Below are positions 3,317 to 59,464 of a DNA stretch of 64,000 bases, one piece after another (position 1 is the stretch's first letter; every line of letters begins with the position of its first letter). The DNA is taken from the NCBI GenBank assembly GCA_046328905.1, contig JAXLVP010000002.1, positions 197,499 to 261,498 on the forward strand, written 5' to 3'. Both the position numbers and the translations under genes were made by a program. Source of the DNA: Bdellovibrionota bacterium (GTDB lineage Bacteria > Bdellovibrionota_C > UBA2361 > SZUA-149 > CAZDWZ01). The notes under the pieces are model-generated. The model was not told where the DNA came from. It did not search any database and worked only from the letters and a program-made list of their open reading frames with translations.

Positions 3317-4189
3317 CTATCCTCGCGCCTTCTTGATACCTTCGCCAAACGGCGTCATGCGAAAAGCCGGAAAATTGCGTAGGAGCTCAGTGATATCAAA
3401 GTGACGGTGCGTTACCGGGCTTTGTCGCGGTTGATTGACAATTTTCACCTCGGTCATCAATCCCTTGATCGAAGCTGCGACTTCACCAAACGAGAGAGCA
3501 CTGCCCGAAGCGGCGTTGACAACTCCAGTCGCCTTACGAGAAACCAGCTCAGTAATGAGAGAGATGAGATCGTCGATGAACAGATGGTCTCGCTGTTCTT
3601 CGCCCTGACCGGTCAATGAGATCTCATTTTTCTCGAGAGCCGTCTTGAGAAAACGATTCGGGCCATAGCTGTTGTGAGTGTCTCCGGCTCCGTATATCGC
3701 GCAGGGACGAACAATGAGCAGGGGCGTTCCCGCCTTTTTGCAGGACTCCGCCAGCATTCTCTCCCGCGCGAGATGCATCACTCCGTGGAAGCTGCTCGGA
3801 TTACAGGCAGAGGTCTCACGCACCGGATGGGCAGCGTCATCGTAGACTGCATCCGAACTAATATAAACGACATGTGCACACGGATGAGCTTCAATAGCTT
3901 CACACACCGCGTCTGCCATCGCCAGATTCTTCAAGAGAGTCTTCCGGTCCCGCCCTTTGTCAGGCGTAAGGGCCGAAATGAAGACCAGGGTGTCTTCTGA
4001 ATTCAGCGCTTCGCCGAGCTTGGTTCCCGCGTCTTCGGAAAGGAGATCAAGGTCCCGAGATGAGAGCGCCTTCGTTGCCCAACCCAGCTCGCGAGTTTTC
4101 GCTTCTAGATTCTTCCCCACGAAACCACGTGAACCGAGTATTACCATTCGCGAAGGTGTCTTTCTTTCTGACGAACTGAGACTCAGCAT
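3317..4189 (-). CDS. NAD(P)-dependent epimerase/dehydratase family (SDR) sugar reductase/epimerase
   Basis: N-terminal Rossmann motif ILGSRGFVGKNL and SDR-like fold; start at ATG 4189 (GGAG RBS) 1 nt after upstream stop. Confidence 0.65.
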   Translation of the reverse strand: MLSLSSSERKTPSRMVILGSRGFVGKNLEAKTRELGWATKALSSRDLDLLSEDAGTKLGEALNSEDTLVFISALTPDKGRDRKTLLKNLAMADAVCEAIEAHPCAHVVYISSDAVYDDAAHPVRETSACNPSSFHGVMHLARERMLAESCKKAGTPLLIVRPCAIYGAGDTHNSYGPNRFLKTALEKNEISLTGQGEEQRDHLFIDDLISLITELVSRKATGVVNAASGSALSFGEVAASIKGLMTEVKIVNQPRQSPVTHRHFDITELLRNFPAFRMTPFGEGIKKARG

Positions 4190-4190
4190 T

Positions 4191-5483
4191 TCATTTCTCC
4201 GTCTTTTTCCCCAAAGTGTGCACGGTAAAGCCTGCCTGATCAAAATCGCGTGAGCTCAACGCGCCGAACGGATCAAGAACCACCCGCCCCTTCATCGCGT
4301 TGGCGACCTCGCCCGCAGGAATCTTCTTGAACTCTGACCACGGGGTTATGAGCACGAGCACGTCCGCTCCTTCACACGCATGGAGAGCGGATTCGGCTTG
4401 CACGACTCGATTCGCCGCGCGTTCACCGAGCTTCACCATCGGGTCATACGCTCGAACACGTTGAGCCTTCAGCGAATCGATCAGCGCAACGGACGGCGAA
4501 TTCTTGATTGAGTGAGTGTCCGGCTTGTAGGCGATTCCCCAGATTCCGATGAGTGGGTCATCTTGCTTTGAAAACACAACTGACGAAAGCTTCCTGAGTA
4601 CCCAGTCTCGTCGATAGACGGCATTGGAAAACCAAGCTTCGATTACCGAGCTATCTGTTCCATGCTCCCGCGCGAGCGACTGCACGGTCACCAGATCTCG
4701 TTCCAAGTTACCGCCCGCGATCCCAAGACCGGGCTGCAGATACGCATGCGGGCCGATTCTTTTATCAAGCCGAAGTGATGGGGCGATCTCGCCCCACTCT
4801 GCCCCTATCTCTTCGCAAAGCTCTGCGAGCGTGCTCGTCGTAATCACTGAGGAAACCAGAAACATGTTGATAGAGATCTTTGCAAGCTCCGCGCTCTCAT
4901 AGCGCATCGGCAGAACAGGACAATCAAAGAGCGAGAGCACCTTCTGATACGCATCCGGGAGCGGAGCCTTCGGGTCCTTGCAACCAACGATGTATCGCTC
5001 CGGGTTGAGCATGCGGCTCATTGCGATACCGAAGACCAGTGTCTCCACCTGGTAATACAGTTGAATGTTCCGATTCTCGCGTTCGACGAGGGCTCCGAGC
5101 GCTCGGGTGAATCCAGGCGACACCTGGCTGTGGATAACCAGCGTCGCGCCGGTTTTGAGCGACGGGAGAATTTTTTCGAAAAGCTCCAATATCGGCGTTG
5201 GGTCGCTGATATTCTTGTCCGAGGTCGGCACGTCGCGAGCAATGTAGAGCACTTCACATCCGCCGAGGTCAGCTTGGTTCGCGGTGAATCGCACTCGGCT
5301 CCCCGCTTCGTGCAAGAGCTCAGACAGATTCTCCTCGAACACAGGCAGCTCGAACCTCGCCAACTTCGCCACGAGCGACGCGTCCGTTTCGAAGCCGAGA
5401 ATGTTCGCACCGCGAGATGCCAGCCCCACGCCGGTTATGAGACCGAGGTGCGAAAGTCCGACAATACCAACGTTCAGGCTCAC
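4191..5483 (-). CDS. nucleotide-sugar 6-dehydrogenase (UDP-glucose/GDP-mannose dehydrogenase family)
   Basis: 430 aa; N-terminal NAD-binding VGIVGLSHLGL and C-terminal GIAYKPDTHSIKNSPS...YDP motif typical of this family. Confidence 0.8.
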   Translation of the reverse strand: MSLNVGIVGLSHLGLITGVGLASRGANILGFETDASLVAKLARFELPVFEENLSELLHEAGSRVRFTANQADLGGCEVLYIARDVPTSDKNISDPTPILELFEKILPSLKTGATLVIHSQVSPGFTRALGALVERENRNIQLYYQVETLVFGIAMSRMLNPERYIVGCKDPKAPLPDAYQKVLSLFDCPVLPMRYESAELAKISINMFLVSSVITTSTLAELCEEIGAEWGEIAPSLRLDKRIGPHAYLQPGLGIAGGNLERDLVTVQSLAREHGTDSSVIEAWFSNAVYRRDWVLRKLSSVVFSKQDDPLIGIWGIAYKPDTHSIKNSPSVALIDSLKAQRVRAYDPMVKLGERAANRVVQAESALHACEGADVLVLITPWSEFKKIPAGEVANAMKGRVVLDPFGALSSRDFDQAGFTVHTLGKKTEK

Positions 5484-6394
5484 TTCCCCTCCTCATACAG
5501 CTTGCGCAGCGTCCTGTTGATCCAAAGGTCGTTGTCGAGATTCGTACCGCCGCGTTTCGCATGCTCAACAAAATATTCGTATTCGAGCTTCCACGTGGGG
5601 TCGGCACACTCGAGCGTATCGGATGCTTCAGTCGGACGTCCGGATGGCAGAACCCGCTTGCGAACAGTGATCGTGCTCGGCCCCCATTTACACAGGCAGT
5701 TGACATGAAGCGATCCGGCATCTCCGATCACATCCAGCCGAAATGTGTTTCTCCACGACAGCAACGTCGCCTCGAGCTGGATGCGCGGCATCTCAGCTTG
5801 CGAGCCGAAAACAACGTGGTCATACGAATTATTTTCCAGCCGGTAGTAACTGAACGGCTTGAGGTCCGTTCGGTGCTCACCAAGCAAGAAATCGGTTGTA
5901 TCAAGCAGGTGAGAACCGAGGTCCGCCAGCACACCCATTCCTTTGTCTCGCCAGACAGAGTTACGAACTTCACGCGCCGTCCCGTTTCCGTAGAACATCT
6001 CGAGGGAAAGAACCTTCCCAATCTCCCCCGCCGTTATAATTTCGCGGGCGCGGACGAGAAACGGCTCGAAGCGATGGTTGTATGCGGTGTAACAAAACAC
6101 CCGCCGCTTCGCGGCCAGATCGCGAAGGCGCTCGATATCCCGGTCGTCCTCGCTCACGAGCGGTTTTTCGACTAGGACGTGCTTCCCGTTATCGAGGAGG
6201 TAGGAAAGAATCTCGATCTTTGCTTCGTCCGGAGTGCACACCAATGCCGCGTCATACGATTCGAGTGGAACGTCTTGCACTCGCGTAAACTGGGCGTCCG
6301 GCTTTACAGGATCAACCGTCGCAACAAGATCGCTGCCGGCGAACTTGCTGCGTTTCGCACCTTGAATCCCGAGCCCGGCGACGATGACTCTCAT
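5480..6394 (-). CDS. Gfo/Idh/MocA family NAD(P)-dependent oxidoreductase
   Basis: N-terminal Rossmann fold with the VLVEKPL (EKP) signature; translationally coupled on both sides. Confidence 0.75.
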   Translation of the reverse strand: MRVIVAGLGIQGAKRSKFAGSDLVATVDPVKPDAQFTRVQDVPLESYDAALVCTPDEAKIEILSYLLDNGKHVLVEKPLVSEDDRDIERLRDLAAKRRVFCYTAYNHRFEPFLVRAREIITAGEIGKVLSLEMFYGNGTAREVRNSVWRDKGMGVLADLGSHLLDTTDFLLGEHRTDLKPFSYYRLENNSYDHVVFGSQAEMPRIQLEATLLSWRNTFRLDVIGDAGSLHVNCLCKWGPSTITVRKRVLPSGRPTEASDTLECADPTWKLEYEYFVEHAKRGGTNLDNDLWINRTLRKLYEEGK

Positions 6395-53137: not shown

Positions 53138-53499
53138 TTTCCGCAAAAACATCTCAAGAATCCACTTTCCCTCGACGATACAACATCTGAATCAGGAAGT
53201 TCGCCGTACCACGGAGGTAACCCCGCGTGACTATTAGTGACACCGCGCCCGTCGCAAGTGTTCCCACCGAGTTCAACGTCAAAGTCGCAAAAGGTCAGGA
53301 CCAGCAGCACGAGACTGTTGTGAACGAGCTGCTGCAGAGCGTCCGGCAAAACGTGAACGCCGAGAATGGCGTAGGGCAACAAGTAAACGTCGCCGCATAA
53401 CGAAAGCGAACTGTTCCGTCGTCGACCAGATTGACGCGCTCGCGGCAACCGTCGGGAGCGTCGCTTGCTTCGCAAAGAGCGCGTACATACAATGGCGCC

Positions 53500-54813
53500 A
53501 TGAATGAACGTGTCGCCGCGCTCGACGCCAGCTTTTTCACTCTCGACTCTGACACCACGCAGCAGGTCATCGCGTCGTACTCTCCGCTCGATCGAATTCC
53601 CGATCTCGAGCGTGCCCGGCAAAGTGTATTGCGGCAGATTGAAGCGTTTCCAAAGATGCGCAAAAGGATCGTCGAACACGGCGGTCTACGTTGGTCGGAG
53701 GACACGTCCTTCGATATCAAGCGCCATGTGCGTTTCGAATGTGTACCGCTCGCGCGCACCGAGCGCGATCTCATGCGGCGAGCGGAGCAGATCTTCAGCT
53801 CGCATCTCGACCTCGAACACCCGCCTTGGGAGTATGTTGTTCTCAGCAGCCGCGAGCAGCCGGAGCCCGACGCCCTCGTCGGATTGCTTTTCAGGATCCA
53901 TCATGGCCTCGCCGACGGGCTCGGTGCGCTGGAGTTTTTCCATCGTGCATGCGATCTACACCCGAGCGGGGCTGAGCTGGAAGCGGTCTCAGCACGCTCT
54001 CACCGTCACGCCGGACAAACCGGCGCCGGCCCGAAAGCGGGCAAATGGCGTTTGCGTCAGAGTATTGCAAAGCTTCTCACCGAAGCACGCGAACGGGTCG
54101 TGAAGAACCCGCTCAACGGCGAAAATTCCGCGGAGCGCAGATTTGCCCATATCGAGTTCCCGCTCCACGACTTGAAGTCGCTCCGGAGAAAATATCGGAC
54201 GTCACTCAATGACCTGCTCCTCGCGCTGGTCACCGGCGCCGTTCGCAGATATCAGCTTTCCGTGAGCTTCTCACCGATTAATGTCAAAGCGCTCGTGCCG
54301 TTCAATTTGCGACCGAAGACCAACCTCACAACGCTTGGGAATCAGCTCACCGGCGTCGGCGTTCCACTTCCCGCAGCGATCGCCGACCCTGTCGAACGGC
54401 TAAAGACCATTCAGACCTGTTTCAACAGAATCAAGTCGGACGGCTCTTTCGGTGCCTATCGCATCGTAGGCATTTTAAATAGCTACCTCCCTCGACGTCT
54501 TCAGCGCCGTTTGAGCGAAGCCGCGGCGAGACGCTCGAATTTTATCTGCACAAACATGCCCGGCCCGGACAAACCGCTCTACTTCGGCGGCGCAAAGCTG
54601 CTGGGACAGTACGGCTTCGCCGCGTTGATGCACGAGCAGGGCATCGCGTTTGCGTTCATGACCTACGCCGGTAAAGCATGCGTCTCGGTAGTGAGCGACC
54701 CTGCGGTCGTCCCCGACCCCTGGCAGATCGTGAGCTACGTAAAAGAGGCGTTCGAGGAACTGGCCTGCACAGACGCGGGCACTCCCCTCCCCCGGGCGGC
54801 AGGATCGGCGTAG
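53500..54813 (+). CDS. wax ester synthase / diacylglycerol acyltransferase (WS/DGAT) family acyltransferase
   Basis: Catalytic HHGLADG (HHxxxDG) motif and N-terminal LDASFF block. Confidence 0.75.
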   Translation: MNERVAALDASFFTLDSDTTQQVIASYSPLDRIPDLERARQSVLRQIEAFPKMRKRIVEHGGLRWSEDTSFDIKRHVRFECVPLARTERDLMRRAEQIFSSHLDLEHPPWEYVVLSSREQPEPDALVGLLFRIHHGLADGLGALEFFHRACDLHPSGAELEAVSARSHRHAGQTGAGPKAGKWRLRQSIAKLLTEARERVVKNPLNGENSAERRFAHIEFPLHDLKSLRRKYRTSLNDLLLALVTGAVRRYQLSVSFSPINVKALVPFNLRPKTNLTTLGNQLTGVGVPLPAAIADPVERLKTIQTCFNRIKSDGSFGAYRIVGILNSYLPRRLQRRLSEAAARRSNFICTNMPGPDKPLYFGGAKLLGQYGFAALMHEQGIAFAFMTYAGKACVSVVSDPAVVPDPWQIVSYVKEAFEELACTDAGTPLPRAAGSA

Positions 54814-54825
54814 CCCACCGAGCGG

Positions 54826-54908
54826 TCGTTGGCGAAGTATCCCCCTTCGTTGGCGAAGTATCCCCCTTACTTTTCTCCCTAGCGCAGAGTATCCCCCTTA
54901 CTTCGTAG
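54826..54908. repeat. short tandem direct repeat (two perfect 21-bp units TCGTTGGCGAAGTATCCCCCT plus a degenerate third copy)
   Basis: Units at 54826-54846 and 54847-54867 are identical; AGTATCCCCCTTAC recurs at 54888. Confidence 0.7.
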
Positions 54909-55077
54909 TGATGCGGACAAGTTTGCCGGCAACGAGACGGTCAACAATTGGTTTCACCGCGACAACCAGCCACTAGTCGCGACGGGTGTCACCGCATCGA
55001 ACGACAAGCTGTATGTCTTCACGGGCTACTCGGGTCTCGACTACGTCCTTCCTGCGAACGTAACGCACAATGATCGA

Positions 55078-55563
55078 TTGGAGATCAAATGGGCTGACTA
55101 CACGTTCGGCGGCAAAGGCGGAAGCGACAAACCTGGGCTGCTTGGGACCGGACATTCGGGCTCAATTCGCGAGGAAGGTGGCCAGACGTTTGTCGACGTC
55201 GCCGACCGCGCGCACTTCCAACGCGAGCGTTTCACGCTCGATGGGAAGCACGTAGCAACGCTGCAGCTCCCTGAGGGCAGCCTGGTGTGTAACATCTTCT
55301 ATGACGGCGACTGGGCCGTCGCATCGTGTCTGGACGGTCCAGATCGATCGAAGGGCGCTCCTATCTACATCATGTATAAGGACAAGATCGTCCACACTCT
55401 CATCGCTCGCGAAGAATTTGGGCTTTCGAACTTTACTCACATCCATGGCGCAGCAATCCGTATCGTTGAACAGACGCCGGGGAAGATTGTCCTCGCACTA
55501 CGTGCGCAGGCGTGGAATCCCGGCGGAGTGGCGGGTTGGAAGCTCACAGCAACTGTGAAGTAG
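55078..55563 (+). CDS. hypothetical protein (possibly a 5'-truncated or start-less gene remnant)
   Basis: 161-aa ORF using TTG; the frame is open upstream to 54883 without any ATG/GTG. Confidence 0.3.
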   Translation: MEIKWADYTFGGKGGSDKPGLLGTGHSGSIREEGGQTFVDVADRAHFQRERFTLDGKHVATLQLPEGSLVCNIFYDGDWAVASCLDGPDRSKGAPIYIMYKDKIVHTLIAREEFGLSNFTHIHGAAIRIVEQTPGKIVLALRAQAWNPGGVAGWKLTATVK

Positions 55564-55925
55564 GTCTAGAAGCAACCGAATGAGCATGACCGGCAGGGTG
55601 GACCTTTCCTCCCTGCCGGCGGCTCGCGGTTCAGCAATGTTACGGCTCGTGAGGCTTCGCCATCGCACTCCTCTCCTTTCAGCTCGGAGAAAACGGCTTG
55701 GGGCAGCGCAGCTCCGGGCGTCACAATCCCCGCGCATGCATGTGGTTGATACCCTCGTGTCACCGCGCATCTCCGCTCGAACGAAAGGACGAGCTTCGAA
55801 CCCGCGAGGTTGGGCTGTTCACTATTCGTTCATTCGCCAGCCGAGGCTTTAATAGCCACAGCGGCGATAGGTCCAAGCATAATTTGAGTACATAACCTTA
55901 CGATAATGCTCCCAATCGTAACCCA

Positions 55926-55969
55926 GGGGGGTGTTGAGACCGGCCAGTCTCGACATCCCCCATTTTTTT
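55926..55969 (+). terminator. Rho-independent terminator
   Basis: GGGGGTGTTGAGAC-loop-GTCTCGACATCCCCC hairpin followed by a T7 tract. Confidence 0.6.
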
Positions 55970-56219
55970 CGCTGCTACGCACATTTTTCGTTCCCTCCAG
56001 GCGTCCGCGCAGCGCTCGCCTAGACCAACCTCAACCGTTAAGCCCCTAATTTCTCTAGCCTTTCAAGAAATGCGCAATTTTGTACAACAGGGTGAACAAA
56101 AAGCTTAAGTTTTGGCCGTATGTGGCCGTTTGAACATTTGGGACGCGGTGGACGTTCAATTTTGAACATCAGGGAGCCGCGCTATTAGAAACTGTATTCG
56201 GTCGGATGTGGTATCAGCT

Positions 56220-56465
56220 ATGAACAATGCAGAGTTAGATAAATTCAGTCGGTTAGTGAACCTCACGGAACACAAAGCAGAGGAACAAGCCAAAAGACGT
56301 CCTCGCGCGATGACCACGCTGAAGCTGCAGTGGCTCGCTGAGCGTCTGCGCAAGACCGAGCAGATCAAAAAGGCGGTCGCCGCCGGAACATACCGAGTCG
56401 AGTCGAAGCTCGTCGCTCAGGCGCTCCTCGGTATCAATGTCGATCTCACAAAAGACAACATCTGA
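56220..56465 (+). CDS. flgM: anti-sigma-28 factor FlgM-like protein
   Basis: C-terminal KKAVAAGTYRVESKLVAQALL matches the FlgM sigma-28-binding helix pattern; small size (81 aa). Confidence 0.55.
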   Translation: MNNAELDKFSRLVNLTEHKAEEQAKRRPRAMTTLKLQWLAERLRKTEQIKKAVAAGTYRVESKLVAQALLGINVDLTKDNI

Positions 56466-56556: not shown

Positions 56557-56887
56557 GGCTGAGCGGATGACTGTCTCCGCGGCTGCAACACTTCTGTCCG
56601 GAGCGCTTCGATACATCCCGCGTCAGCAAACTTCCGCGCATTCGACTCAGCGTAAGACCGTAGCCCCCGCGCTACCCGCTTCGGTAACAGTGGCAACAAC
56701 TGCCGAGGCGAAGGTCCGCAAACACTTCAGAGCCCGTTGCTGCGCAGAATCGCGCAGCTGGAGCCTCGTAAACACGCTTCCGCCACAGAACTCTGCTGTT
56801 TCTTCTCGCAGAAGATTATAGTAGCGTTTCGCTGCCGGTCATCGGGCCGGGCGGTAATTATTGGCAAAACTCATTTCGGATAGTTTT

Positions 56888-57328
56888 ATGAAAGTATCGT
56901 CTCGCCACTGTCTTCTCGCCCTCGGCGCATCGCTTCTTTTCGTATCGTCGGCCACCAGCGCATTCGCCGGAAAACCGGAGCGCGATCGCGCGGATGACAT
57001 CAAGCCGAAGCAGGAAGAAGTGCAAAAGAAATTCAAAGAAACCTGCGGATGCGATGTGCATGTAAACGTCAAGTTTGAATCGTACGCTACGGTCGACGAC
57101 ATGGCTTACATCGACCAAAGTCTCGATTCGCTTTCGTCCGCAGCTTCCGCGTACTGCGAAAAGGAAGCCGACAAAAAAGCTCTGTGCGAATCTCTGACTG
57201 AAGTGGAGTTCTCGTTTGCCAAGGACGAGTCGACGGCAAAGCTCGAAGGAAAGAAGATCAGCGTTACGACTGGGCCGCATAGCTATGCGAGCGATACGGC
57301 CTTCTCAACGATCTTGAACAAATTCTAA
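56888..57328 (+). CDS. secreted hypothetical protein
   Basis: Signal peptide MKVSSRHCLLALGASLLFVSSATSAFA; Lys/Glu-rich mature part with 4 Cys. Confidence 0.5.
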   Translation: MKVSSRHCLLALGASLLFVSSATSAFAGKPERDRADDIKPKQEEVQKKFKETCGCDVHVNVKFESYATVDDMAYIDQSLDSLSSAASAYCEKEADKKALCESLTEVEFSFAKDESTAKLEGKKISVTTGPHSYASDTAFSTILNKF

Positions 57329-57348
57329 CCAGCGTTTGTCCGCTCGGA

Positions 57349-57383
57349 GGCGGCGGGATTACTTTTCCTCGCCGCCTTTTTTT
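57349..57383 (+). terminator. putative Rho-independent terminator (overlaps the 3' end of the convergent ClC gene)
   Basis: GGCGGCG ... CGCCGCC stem followed by T7. Confidence 0.45.
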
Positions 57384-58888
57384 CCATCCACCCGCTTTCT
57401 CAATCGCTTACGAACCGAAGAAACTCGCTTCGTCAGACTTCCCTCTCTTACACGCATCGAACCGATCGTAACCTCTCCGATAGGCACGTCGAGATCGAAC
57501 TCGAGTCCGGCGGACTTCGCAAATCCGATTCGTTGACTCGGATACACACTCCGGTGGCCGACGATGAGATACGCCGCGCACACGGAAAGCGCAGCGTACA
57601 CTCCGACCGGTCCGGGAAGAATTTCCATTCCCATCACCGCGGCGGCGATTGGTGTGTTGGTGCTCGCACCAAGTAGCGAGATGAATCCGAAGGCCGAAAC
57701 GAGGCTGATTGGAAGGCCGCAGAGCTGCGCTATCGCGGCTCCGACCGTCGTTCCAATGAAGAACAGCGGAGTCAGAATCCCCCCGCTGCCTCCGACCTCC
57801 AACGTGACGGCGGTAGCGAGCATCTTCAGCAATCCGGCAGCAATAGGGGCATTACCGCCGTGAAGCACCGCCTCGATTGTCTCGACTCCGAGACCCGAAT
57901 AGAGCGCGCCGAAGATGAAAAAGAAAATAACCAGCAATGCGCCACCGAAGCAGGCGACTTGGTAGGGGTGACTTCGGTAGTGATGCAATCGCGCTTCAAT
58001 GAGCTCGGTAAGCTCGATGAAAAGGAGAGCAACCAACCCGAAAATGACTCCAAGTCCCAGCGTCAATAAGACAAAGACGAACTGTCCAGAGACGATCGTG
58101 CTCGGCGGCACATTTACGACAGGCGGCGACACGTCGCAAACCAGGTGCGCCATAATCCCGGCGAGAAGACTTGGAAACAGTACCGAGTATTCGATCCGAC
58201 CAAGATAGAGCACTTCGATCCCGAAGAGCGCCCCCGAGACGGGAGTTCCAAACACAGCCGCGAATCCGGCGCTGATTCCACAGATCACCAATCGCCTTCG
58301 GTCTGCGTCTGCGAGCCGAAGCACGTCAGCGAACAGGCTGGACACCGCAGCGCCGATCTGTGCGCACGGTCCCTCTTTTCCGACAGATCCGCCCGTGGCA
58401 AGCGTGAGAATCGTAGCAAGCAACTTGACCGGCGCGACCTTCCAAGAAATTCGGCCTGAGCGCTGATGCACCGCCTCGATCACTGCTTCCGTTCCGTGCC
58501 CCTGGGCTTCTGGTGCGAAGGTTCGAATGAGAAATACACAAAGTGGAAGAGAAAGAGGCAGCCACAGATAGGGAGGCACGCGATTTCCTGTTTCCGTCGC
58601 AAGCCATGCGGACGCTTCGGCAAGAGACCAGAGGAAGAACTTGGTCCCGATCCCGACGCACAGGCCGGAGATCGTCCCTAAGATAGCCCATTTCGTGGTA
58701 GTGACGAAGAGGGCGGTATGTTCGATATACCATTTCGATCGCGGCTCGCTGGCGACCTTTTGAGATTCCTGCTGAACACGTTCTTCGACGGGTGCGAGGG
58801 ACGGCCCGACTTCCGAGGCTTCCGTTGGAGAAGCACCTTCATCATCCATAGCTCCGACTCTAACCTTTGTGTGCGTAGACGCGACCAT
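57359..58888 (-). CDS. ClC-family chloride channel / H+-Cl- antiporter
   Basis: Selectivity-filter motifs GSVGKEGP and GTPVSGALFGIE; multi-TM; alternative start ATG 58849. Confidence 0.8.
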   Translation of the reverse strand: MVASTHTKVRVGAMDDEGASPTEASEVGPSLAPVEERVQQESQKVASEPRSKWYIEHTALFVTTTKWAILGTISGLCVGIGTKFFLWSLAEASAWLATETGNRVPPYLWLPLSLPLCVFLIRTFAPEAQGHGTEAVIEAVHQRSGRISWKVAPVKLLATILTLATGGSVGKEGPCAQIGAAVSSLFADVLRLADADRRRLVICGISAGFAAVFGTPVSGALFGIEVLYLGRIEYSVLFPSLLAGIMAHLVCDVSPPVVNVPPSTIVSGQFVFVLLTLGLGVIFGLVALLFIELTELIEARLHHYRSHPYQVACFGGALLVIFFFIFGALYSGLGVETIEAVLHGGNAPIAAGLLKMLATAVTLEVGGSGGILTPLFFIGTTVGAAIAQLCGLPISLVSAFGFISLLGASTNTPIAAAVMGMEILPGPVGVYAALSVCAAYLIVGHRSVYPSQRIGFAKSAGLEFDLDVPIGEVTIGSMRVREGSLTKRVSSVRKRLRKRVDGKKGGEEK

Positions 58889-59122: not shown

Positions 59123-59464
59123 TTATTTGGAGGGAACGATATAGTACGGGTAAGGTTGCCCGTCCTTGAAGTCATAGTACGGTTTCGCGTTTGAACCGAC
59201 AATCGGATTTGAGCCGTTTGCCGGACCGTTTTTTGTCAGCGCACCCCAAGTGAAGTCGTTCGCCGTCAACTGGCGGTCCGGCATGTTCACGTTGACCGGT
59301 GGATTGCCGAGCATGAAGCGCGCCTCGTCAGCATTCGCGATACGCCCTTCGCCCTGCTCCGCAGGAGTATTCTCGGTGTTCGGCAAAGAATCAGCAGATG
59401 CTGCCGACACAGCAAAACAGACGGCAAGAAAAGGCAGCGCTACCGCAACTTTCACACGTCTCAT
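59123..59464 (-). CDS. small secreted hypothetical protein
   Basis: Signal peptide MRRVKVAVALPFLAVCFAVSAASA; about 114 aa. Confidence 0.45.
   Translation of the reverse strand: MRRVKVAVALPFLAVCFAVSAASADSLPNTENTPAEQGEGRIANADEARFMLGNPPVNVNMPDRQLTANDFTWGALTKNGPANGSNPIVGSNAKPYYDFKDGQPYPYYIVPSK

Follow-up and report, generated by a model that had tools for sequence, protein, structure and literature searches.

The window analysed here is a 64,000-nucleotide stretch of a metagenome-assembled Bdellovibrionota genome, located on a 1.87-Mb contig. On its + strand, a wax-ester/triacylglycerol synthase gene (WS/DGAT, 53431-54813; Pfam WS_DGAT_cat and WS_DGAT_C, NCBIfam TIGR02946) is followed by an ORF of 161 aa (55078-55563; NCBI locus tag U0136_15290), a 406-nt segment (55564-55969) and flgM (56220-56465). 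An earlier note on this DNA had flagged the segment as protein-free, ending in a strong terminator upstream of flgM, and had proposed that it is a long 3′UTR or an independent small RNA (sRNA) of about 400 nt. As proposed, the gene downstream of the segment is flgM (Pfam FlgM, E = 9e-7), and the strong terminator was found on the + strand only, as a stem-loop at 55926-55961 with 15 pairs, 9 of them G-C, and a loop of 6 nt. The flgM gene of GenBank encodes only 51 aa (P0050). The proteins of relatives (79-82 aa) align from the ATG at 56220; therefore, the annotated flgM start is probably too far downstream. A search of metagenome contigs with a FlgM alignment returned one short, distant locus.

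We examined the ORF preceding the segment, which is annotated in GenBank as a hypothetical protein and which the earlier note took for the nearest same-strand gene. That description is misleading, as 55078-55563 is the C-terminal part of a 5′-truncated gene. Upstream of 55078, the frame stays open as far back as 54883 and contains no start codon. In BLASTP against full-length homologues (P0004 and P0006), the similarity sets in at frame residue 6, equivalent to residue 169 of the family, and extends to the C-terminal end of the family. The remnant (54883-55563, + strand) thus keeps residues ~169 to the C-terminus (~210 aa) of a family of ~378 aa. Pfam has no domain for this family, and its fold is predicted to be a closed six-bladed propeller of the NHL/PAL/Drp35-like type (pLDDT 84.5). 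On a codon-usage log-ratio derived from 37 long window genes, the remnant scored +0.26 and its start-less part +0.20; since the composition is still gene-like, the truncation looks recent. Judging from the predicted fold, a propeller without the signal region and short of nearly half of the blades would probably fail to fold, and U0136_15290 is probably better annotated as a pseudogene of a secreted NHL-type beta-propeller family.

Between the WS/DGAT stop and the remnant, Tandem Repeats Finder detected a set of repeats (54826-54899, + strand) in which a 21-bp unit, TCGTTGGCGAAGTATCCCCCT, is present twice and a third copy of AGTATCCCCCTT abuts the truncation point. The three copies of AGTATCCCCCTT, two of them within the perfect 21-bp tandem, compare with 0.1 expected by chance, and these repeats were found nowhere else in the window or in all fetched loci. 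A recombination scar, binding sites and the end of an element are candidate origins. Inverted matches between these left junction repeats and 55655-55665 or 55833-55846 were weak and no better than chance pairs. A copy of a repeat or mobile element was rejected, as 54814-56219 recurs elsewhere in the window only as 12-14-mers.

To place the extra DNA, we compared the intergenic region with related loci. In the closest relative (JGI 3300056388, a 33.7-kb contig; FlgM 81% and WS/DGAT 59% identical), WS/DGAT lies at 4045-5388 and flgM at 5810-6055, leaving a spacer of 421 bp versus 1406 bp in the window. Therefore, the window carries ~985 bp extra, and the remnant plus ~290 nt are lineage-specific. 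Two same-strain contigs (L001 and L002) were 100% identical to the window and uninformative on divergence. When 54814-56219 was searched by BLASTN against all related loci, alignments were obtained only for the remnant, to full-length members of its family, for 55877-56016 and for the flgM promoter region at 56039-56167; 55564-55876 aligned to no related locus. Full-length propeller homologues have a convergent gene ~35 bp downstream and stand among unrelated or variable neighbours. On these grounds, we ruled out that the segment is a conserved 3′ region linked to the propeller family. The stretch 55564-55854 is probably 3′ flank that was brought in with the gene remnant.

Next to the codon usage of true genes (mean +0.22, 5th percentile +0.04), the candidate frames within the segment scored -0.04 to -0.19, and they had no domain match in Pfam or NCBIfam. 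The 90-aa ORF at 55580-55852 had no relative among 1.84 billion representative proteins, and a decayed second gene in 55564-55854 was rejected on this search with the 90-aa frame and on the domain searches. These results bear out the earlier view that the segment holds no credible ORF. They also bear on the reading that the segment encodes a small protein, for which ORFs of 47-90 aa are available, among them the 90-aa ORF and an ORF beginning MLPIV that starts in a hairpin loop described below.

The fold z-score of 55564-55969 on the + strand was -4.9, and this value, together with the missing ORF and the terminator at its end, would favour the whole ~400-nt segment as one functional long non-coding RNA or regulatory 3′UTR. 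When the last 82 nt were removed (55564-55887), the z-score was -2.3, and with the hairpins at both ends left out (55625-55887) it fell to -0.39. The region had been called structured, which is correct for both ends and incorrect for the middle. The first of these hairpins, given earlier as a 9-bp stem at 55589-55618, is present one base away, at 55590-55619 on the + strand and 27 nt past the stop codon of the remnant. It has 13-nt arms with one mismatch, including the perfect 9-bp arms CCGGCAGGG (55590-55598) and CCCTGCCGG (55611-55619), a loop of 4 nt and no T-run. The window contains 5 perfect 9-bp hairpins and its shuffles 2.1 ± 1.3, so that this one is unusual and not exceptional. In addition, 15 nt at the end of the remnant (GCGGGTTGGAAGCTC, 55531-55545) are 93% complementary to 55791-55805, 245 nt downstream, which could be chance or long-range pairing in a read-through transcript.

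A single unit of ~400 nt is also contradicted by the alignment with no related locus of 55564-55876, by the 421-bp spacer of the nearest relative, which is too small to hold it, and by Rfam. The covariance-model search that had been suggested as a check was run and matched no family: Rfam 15 gave no match in the whole window at the gathering score, and 54700-56300 gave nothing relevant at E ≤ 10. We consider a functional ~400-nt RNA very improbable. Because ~290 nt are lineage-specific, non-conserved and, without the first hairpin, folded at chance level, 55564-55969 is not one RNA. Conservation in relatives, another suggested check, holds for the last ~115 nt and fails for 55564-55854, a non-coding spacer (+ strand) that has neither similarity to related loci nor coding potential. 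Taken together, these results demonstrate that two unrelated pieces, 55564-55854 and 55855-55969, make up the 406-nt segment. For annotation, this means that ~290 nt of the flagged segment require no functional explanation. What survives of the original proposal is a shorter candidate of ~80-115 nt; the 400-nt unit and the link to flgM do not.

The second piece recurs directly behind WS/DGAT in two further, Bdellovibrionota-like species. In the locus L090 (GCA_964401765.1; WS/DGAT P0066, 47% identical), it lies 58 nt past the WS/DGAT stop, and in L092 and L093 (WS/DGAT P0067, 45% identical) it lies ~225 nt past the stop, behind a long palindrome. The WS/DGAT proteins of the three species are 45-54% identical to one another, and WS/DGAT is the conserved upstream neighbour of the element in all three. 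Common to the window, L090 and L092/L093 is the motif ACCTTACGAT(A)ATGCTCCCAATCGTA plus a terminator; the L090 module reads ACCTTACGAT-ATGCTCCCAATCGTAACCC, followed by a G+C-rich hairpin and a T-run. Within the 30-nt motif, one loop base is deleted in L090, and in L092 the 5′ flank changes from ACCTT to CCTTT and the 3′ end from AACCC to AGGCT. The motif forms hairpin 1 (55898-55921, + strand), in which the stem UUACGAU (55898-55904)/AUCGUAA (55915-55921) encloses the 10-nt loop AAUGCUCCCA (55905-55914). This hairpin is near-invariant in the three species: apart from the loop base missing in L090, one stem pair is weakened to U-G in L092.

Hairpin 1 is followed by the intrinsic terminator (55926-55969, + strand), whose 15-pair stem-loop is continued by an A and by T7 at 55963-55969. 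L090 and L092 each have an equivalent hairpin with a T-run, T6-A-T6 in L090 and T7 in L092. Among the three species, 4 of the 15 stem pairs are changed on both sides, and 92% of the stem cells are paired, as against 43-56% after sliding the partners by 1-3 columns; in this comparison of three sequences, 11 of 500 shuffles reach the observed values. Two hairpins form in the consensus fold and in each of the three sequences, whose z-scores are -5.4, -4.5 and -3.7. A covariance model (R1) gave 96 bits for the window, 85 for L090 and 98 for L092, the same three sequences from which it was built, and had no further match in the window or among the related loci L083-L094. The element was absent from L094, a more distant WS/DGAT locus (42% identical) with a different gene context. 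The L090 and L092 elements matched nothing in Rfam at E ≤ 1. These comparisons demonstrate, at the level of aligned sequences, that the module 55855-55969 and its two-hairpin architecture are conserved and that the terminator changes are compensatory. Since hairpin 1 never varies, its pairing gets no support from covariation, nor any contradiction.

The module also bears on the reading as a small protein, in whose favour one gene caller places a 58-aa ORF across the L092 element. In the three species, the frame opened by the loop ATG has lengths of 47, 8 and 36 aa and extends through the terminator. In addition, the one-base indel shifts the frame within the most conserved block; therefore, coding is excluded there on either strand. 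With the negative codon scores and the empty protein searches given above, a small protein is scarcely credible.

A constraint on the DNA itself, or a site bound by a protein, could account for the conservation of hairpin 1. One alternative is that TTACGAT-N10-ATCGTAA acts as DNA, either as an operator bound by a dimeric regulator or as a site of recombination or integration, with the terminator beside it by coincidence. The two arms are invariant and without compensatory change, as this alternative would have it, and two lineages have independent insertions just upstream (a block of 1 kb in the window, a palindrome in L092). Against it, the 10-nt spacer is conserved like the arms, which is unusual for an operator, the distance and orientation of the site relative to a terminator with a co-varying stem are fixed, and the downstream genes differ (flgM in the window, a small Cys-rich ORF in L090 and L092). 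Furthermore, no copies were found elsewhere: the exact motif was absent from the rest of the window and of the 93 loci examined, unrelated ones included, as well as from viral contigs. We therefore regard a DNA site as improbable.

Two features of the related elements were observed alongside. The Shine-Dalgarno-like sequence GGAGG, in part complementary to the CUCCC of the hairpin 1 loop, occurs in the terminator loops of L090 (4888-4897) and L092 (5346-5353); the terminator loop of the window (CGGCCA) has no GGAGG. The palindrome in L092 (~5075-5233, the same in L093), between the WS/DGAT stop and the element, is a near-perfect inverted repeat of ~42 bp around a centre of ~75 nt. Rfam models of plant microRNA precursors match it purely because it is a long hairpin, and it may be a miniature mobile element.

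We also examined the region between the module and flgM. The stretch upstream of flgM (56039-56167) has conserved counterparts in the flgM loci L086-L088 and L091, and the element is absent from all four. In the L090 genome, flgM is on a different contig and has no such element upstream. A link between the element and flgM was ruled out, as L086-L088 and L091 share the flgM promoter region without the element. By these sequence comparisons, the element is tied to WS/DGAT and has no functional tie to flgM. Within 56039-56175, there is a sigma-28-like sequence, TAAGTTTT-N11-GCCGTTTG, at 56106-56132, and three direct repeats of the form TTTG(T/A)ACA...GGGA are found at 56075-56092, 56129-56143 and 56157-56175; from their sequence, these repeats may be regulator sites.

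The wider neighbourhood differs among the species as well. Between a MORN-repeat gene and WS/DGAT, L090 (2789-3451) and L092 (3050-3709) have a 4′-phosphopantetheinyl transferase (ACPS) gene and an ORF of ~57 aa; the window has just 293 bp there (53138-53430), and the ACPS gene is therefore missing at that position. Between flgM and the acyl-CoA carboxylase genes, the window has a gene for a 155-aa secreted protein and a ClC chloride-channel gene (56861-58888), and the nearest relative has a 120-aa gene only. The ClC protein had no close relative in the genome collection, its best matches being 30-50% identical and from other phyla. This stretch may be a second lineage-specific insertion.

To explore how the module might be transcribed, we inspected the sequence preceding hairpin 1. 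The three-species alignment contains a promoter-like site (55855-55883, + strand), which in the window consists of a -35 GCCACA (55855-55860), a 17-nt spacer and a -10 CATAAT (55878-55883), followed by ttgaGTA, and scores 8/12. The corresponding hexamers are ATCACA and TACAAT in L090 (followed by ctggGTA; 9/12) and AGCACA and CACAAA in L092 (followed by cagaGTA; 6/12). The -35 keeps CACA and the -10 keeps A2, A4 and A5, with no T at -10 position 6 in L092, and the spacer is fixed at 17 nt while its sequences are unrelated. A conserved GTA stands 4 nt past the -10 hexamer, its A being the 7th base downstream; a start at this GTA and an end at the T-run would give a candidate sRNA of ~80 nt (55890-55969, + strand). 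Because the spacing and the core bases are kept and a promoter scan called the L090 site independently, while the window and L092 sites scored below its threshold, a weak sigma-70-like promoter of the element's own is plausible and unproven.

The transcript of WS/DGAT offers a second route. On the + strand, 54813-55926 contains no terminator-like site with more than 6 pairs; therefore, read-through from WS/DGAT would end at the 55926-55969 terminator. Likewise, in the 58-nt gap of L090 there is no other + strand terminator between the WS/DGAT stop and the element. RNAs at mRNA 3′ ends arise from a promoter or by processing, and at the MalH/MicX locus the route differs by species (PMC9438474). 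An independent sRNA gene is defined in the same source by its own promoter and terminator in an intergenic region.

The same observations would suit a simpler possibility, namely that the module is nothing but the 3′ end of the WS/DGAT mRNA, a terminator plus a hairpin acting in cis (on stability, processing or protein binding), with no action in trans. In L090 the module follows the WS/DGAT stop by 58 nt with no terminator between, the window has no strong terminator on the + strand from 54813 to 55926, two of the three species have a weak promoter-like site, and the target searches described below gave none in the window or in the WS/DGAT mRNA. However, the 30-nt motif has stayed intact, with one inserted base relative to L090, despite 1.1 kb of foreign DNA in the window and a ~160-bp palindrome in L092. 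The loop is near-invariant as well, a pattern seen more typically in surfaces for pairing or recognition than in hairpins that stabilise, and the -35/-10 spacing is kept across a spacer that is not conserved. We regard a purely cis-acting mRNA end as unlikely, though it retains real weight.

We searched for mRNAs with which the RNA might pair. In the window, the best duplex (-32.2 kcal/mol) was at the start region of the ORF at 59123-59455, and 9 of 120 shuffled RNAs equalled it; the WS/DGAT mRNA had no positionally conserved pairing site. A target shared across species was rejected, as the matches to a ~113-aa gene in L090 and L092 and the match in the window concern unrelated proteins. About one fifth of the inspected gene starts in the window have GGAG upstream.

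Taken together, we favour, with a probability of roughly 0.55, the reading that the segment is a composite of debris and an ~80-nt sRNA module, which would be either self-transcribed or a product of the WS/DGAT mRNA's 3′ end. The first piece would be non-functional DNA that entered this lineage with the now 5′-truncated propeller gene and came to separate the WS/DGAT stop from the element originally behind it. The second would comprise the weak sigma-70-like promoter, a start near 55890, the 7-bp hairpin with its loop AAUGCUCCCA and the strong intrinsic terminator, and its product would be an RNA of ~80 nt made from its own promoter or by processing of the WS/DGAT transcript. Most likely, the exposed C-rich loop and the 5′ tail would pair with G-rich, Shine-Dalgarno-like sites in mRNAs. 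For the module, we infer transcription, the 5′ end, action in trans and targets. A more ambitious proposal, which we put forward tentatively and would not yet back against its opposite, is that the module is the founding member of an undescribed sRNA family that spans deeply diverged Bdellovibrionota, is anchored to the 3′ end of WS/DGAT and regulates mRNAs in trans through its loop, coupling wax-ester/triacylglycerol synthesis to other functions, in the manner of FarS in the fatty-acid metabolism of Vibrio.

If this is true, a conserved regulatory RNA is attached to a storage-lipid gene in poorly studied, uncultivated Bdellovibrionota, and the covariance model could be used to trace it. The element has survived intact although foreign DNA was inserted between it and its parent gene. 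No major question is opened by this, because sRNAs at mRNA 3′ ends are a well-known class.

Among known sRNAs, those of mRNA 3′ ends, such as DapZ, MicL, CpxQ and MalH/MicX (PMC9438474), resemble the module in lying directly behind a protein gene, in ending at its intrinsic terminator and in having a short conserved unpaired region upstream of the terminator hairpin. FarS, which derives from the fabB 3′UTR in Vibrio cholerae (PMC7148568), has a parent gene in lipid metabolism, as the module would have in WS/DGAT. MalH/MicX is processed in one species and self-transcribed in the other (PMC9438474), and the same two routes are the alternatives for the module. However, the module has no sequence or model similarity to DapZ, MicL, CpxQ, MalH/MicX or FarS, and its phylum differs from theirs. 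Several of these 3′-end sRNAs have a known dependence on Hfq and RNase E. In the window, the module now stands 1.1 kb from WS/DGAT, its putative parent gene.

With classical intergenic trans-acting sRNAs of the Hfq type, which have their own promoter and a Rho-independent terminator of seven or more U, the module shares a promoter-like site of conserved spacing, a predicted length of ~80 nt, two hairpins, a T7 tail and conservation in relatives. It differs in the weakness of its promoter-like site (8/12 in the window, 6/12 in L092) and in the linker between its hairpins, which is ACCCA instead of the usual U-rich or A/U-rich sequence. PMC5558911 describes seven or more T after the terminator as a feature of Hfq-binding sRNAs, and the T7 tail at 55963-55969 fits that description, as far as its sequence goes.

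The exposed loop invites a third comparison. sRNAs with C-rich loops, of the RsaE/RoxS type (Rfam RF01820), pair with Shine-Dalgarno sequences. Like them, the module would expose a loop, and the CUCCC in this invariant loop is complementary to GGGAG/GGAG. In contrast to the several C-rich motifs of RsaE/RoxS, the module has a single one, it has no Rfam match at E ≤ 10, and its lineage is unrelated. On these features of its sequence, the module would fit the class of 3′-end sRNAs that share the terminator of their parent mRNA, or that of classical intergenic sRNAs.
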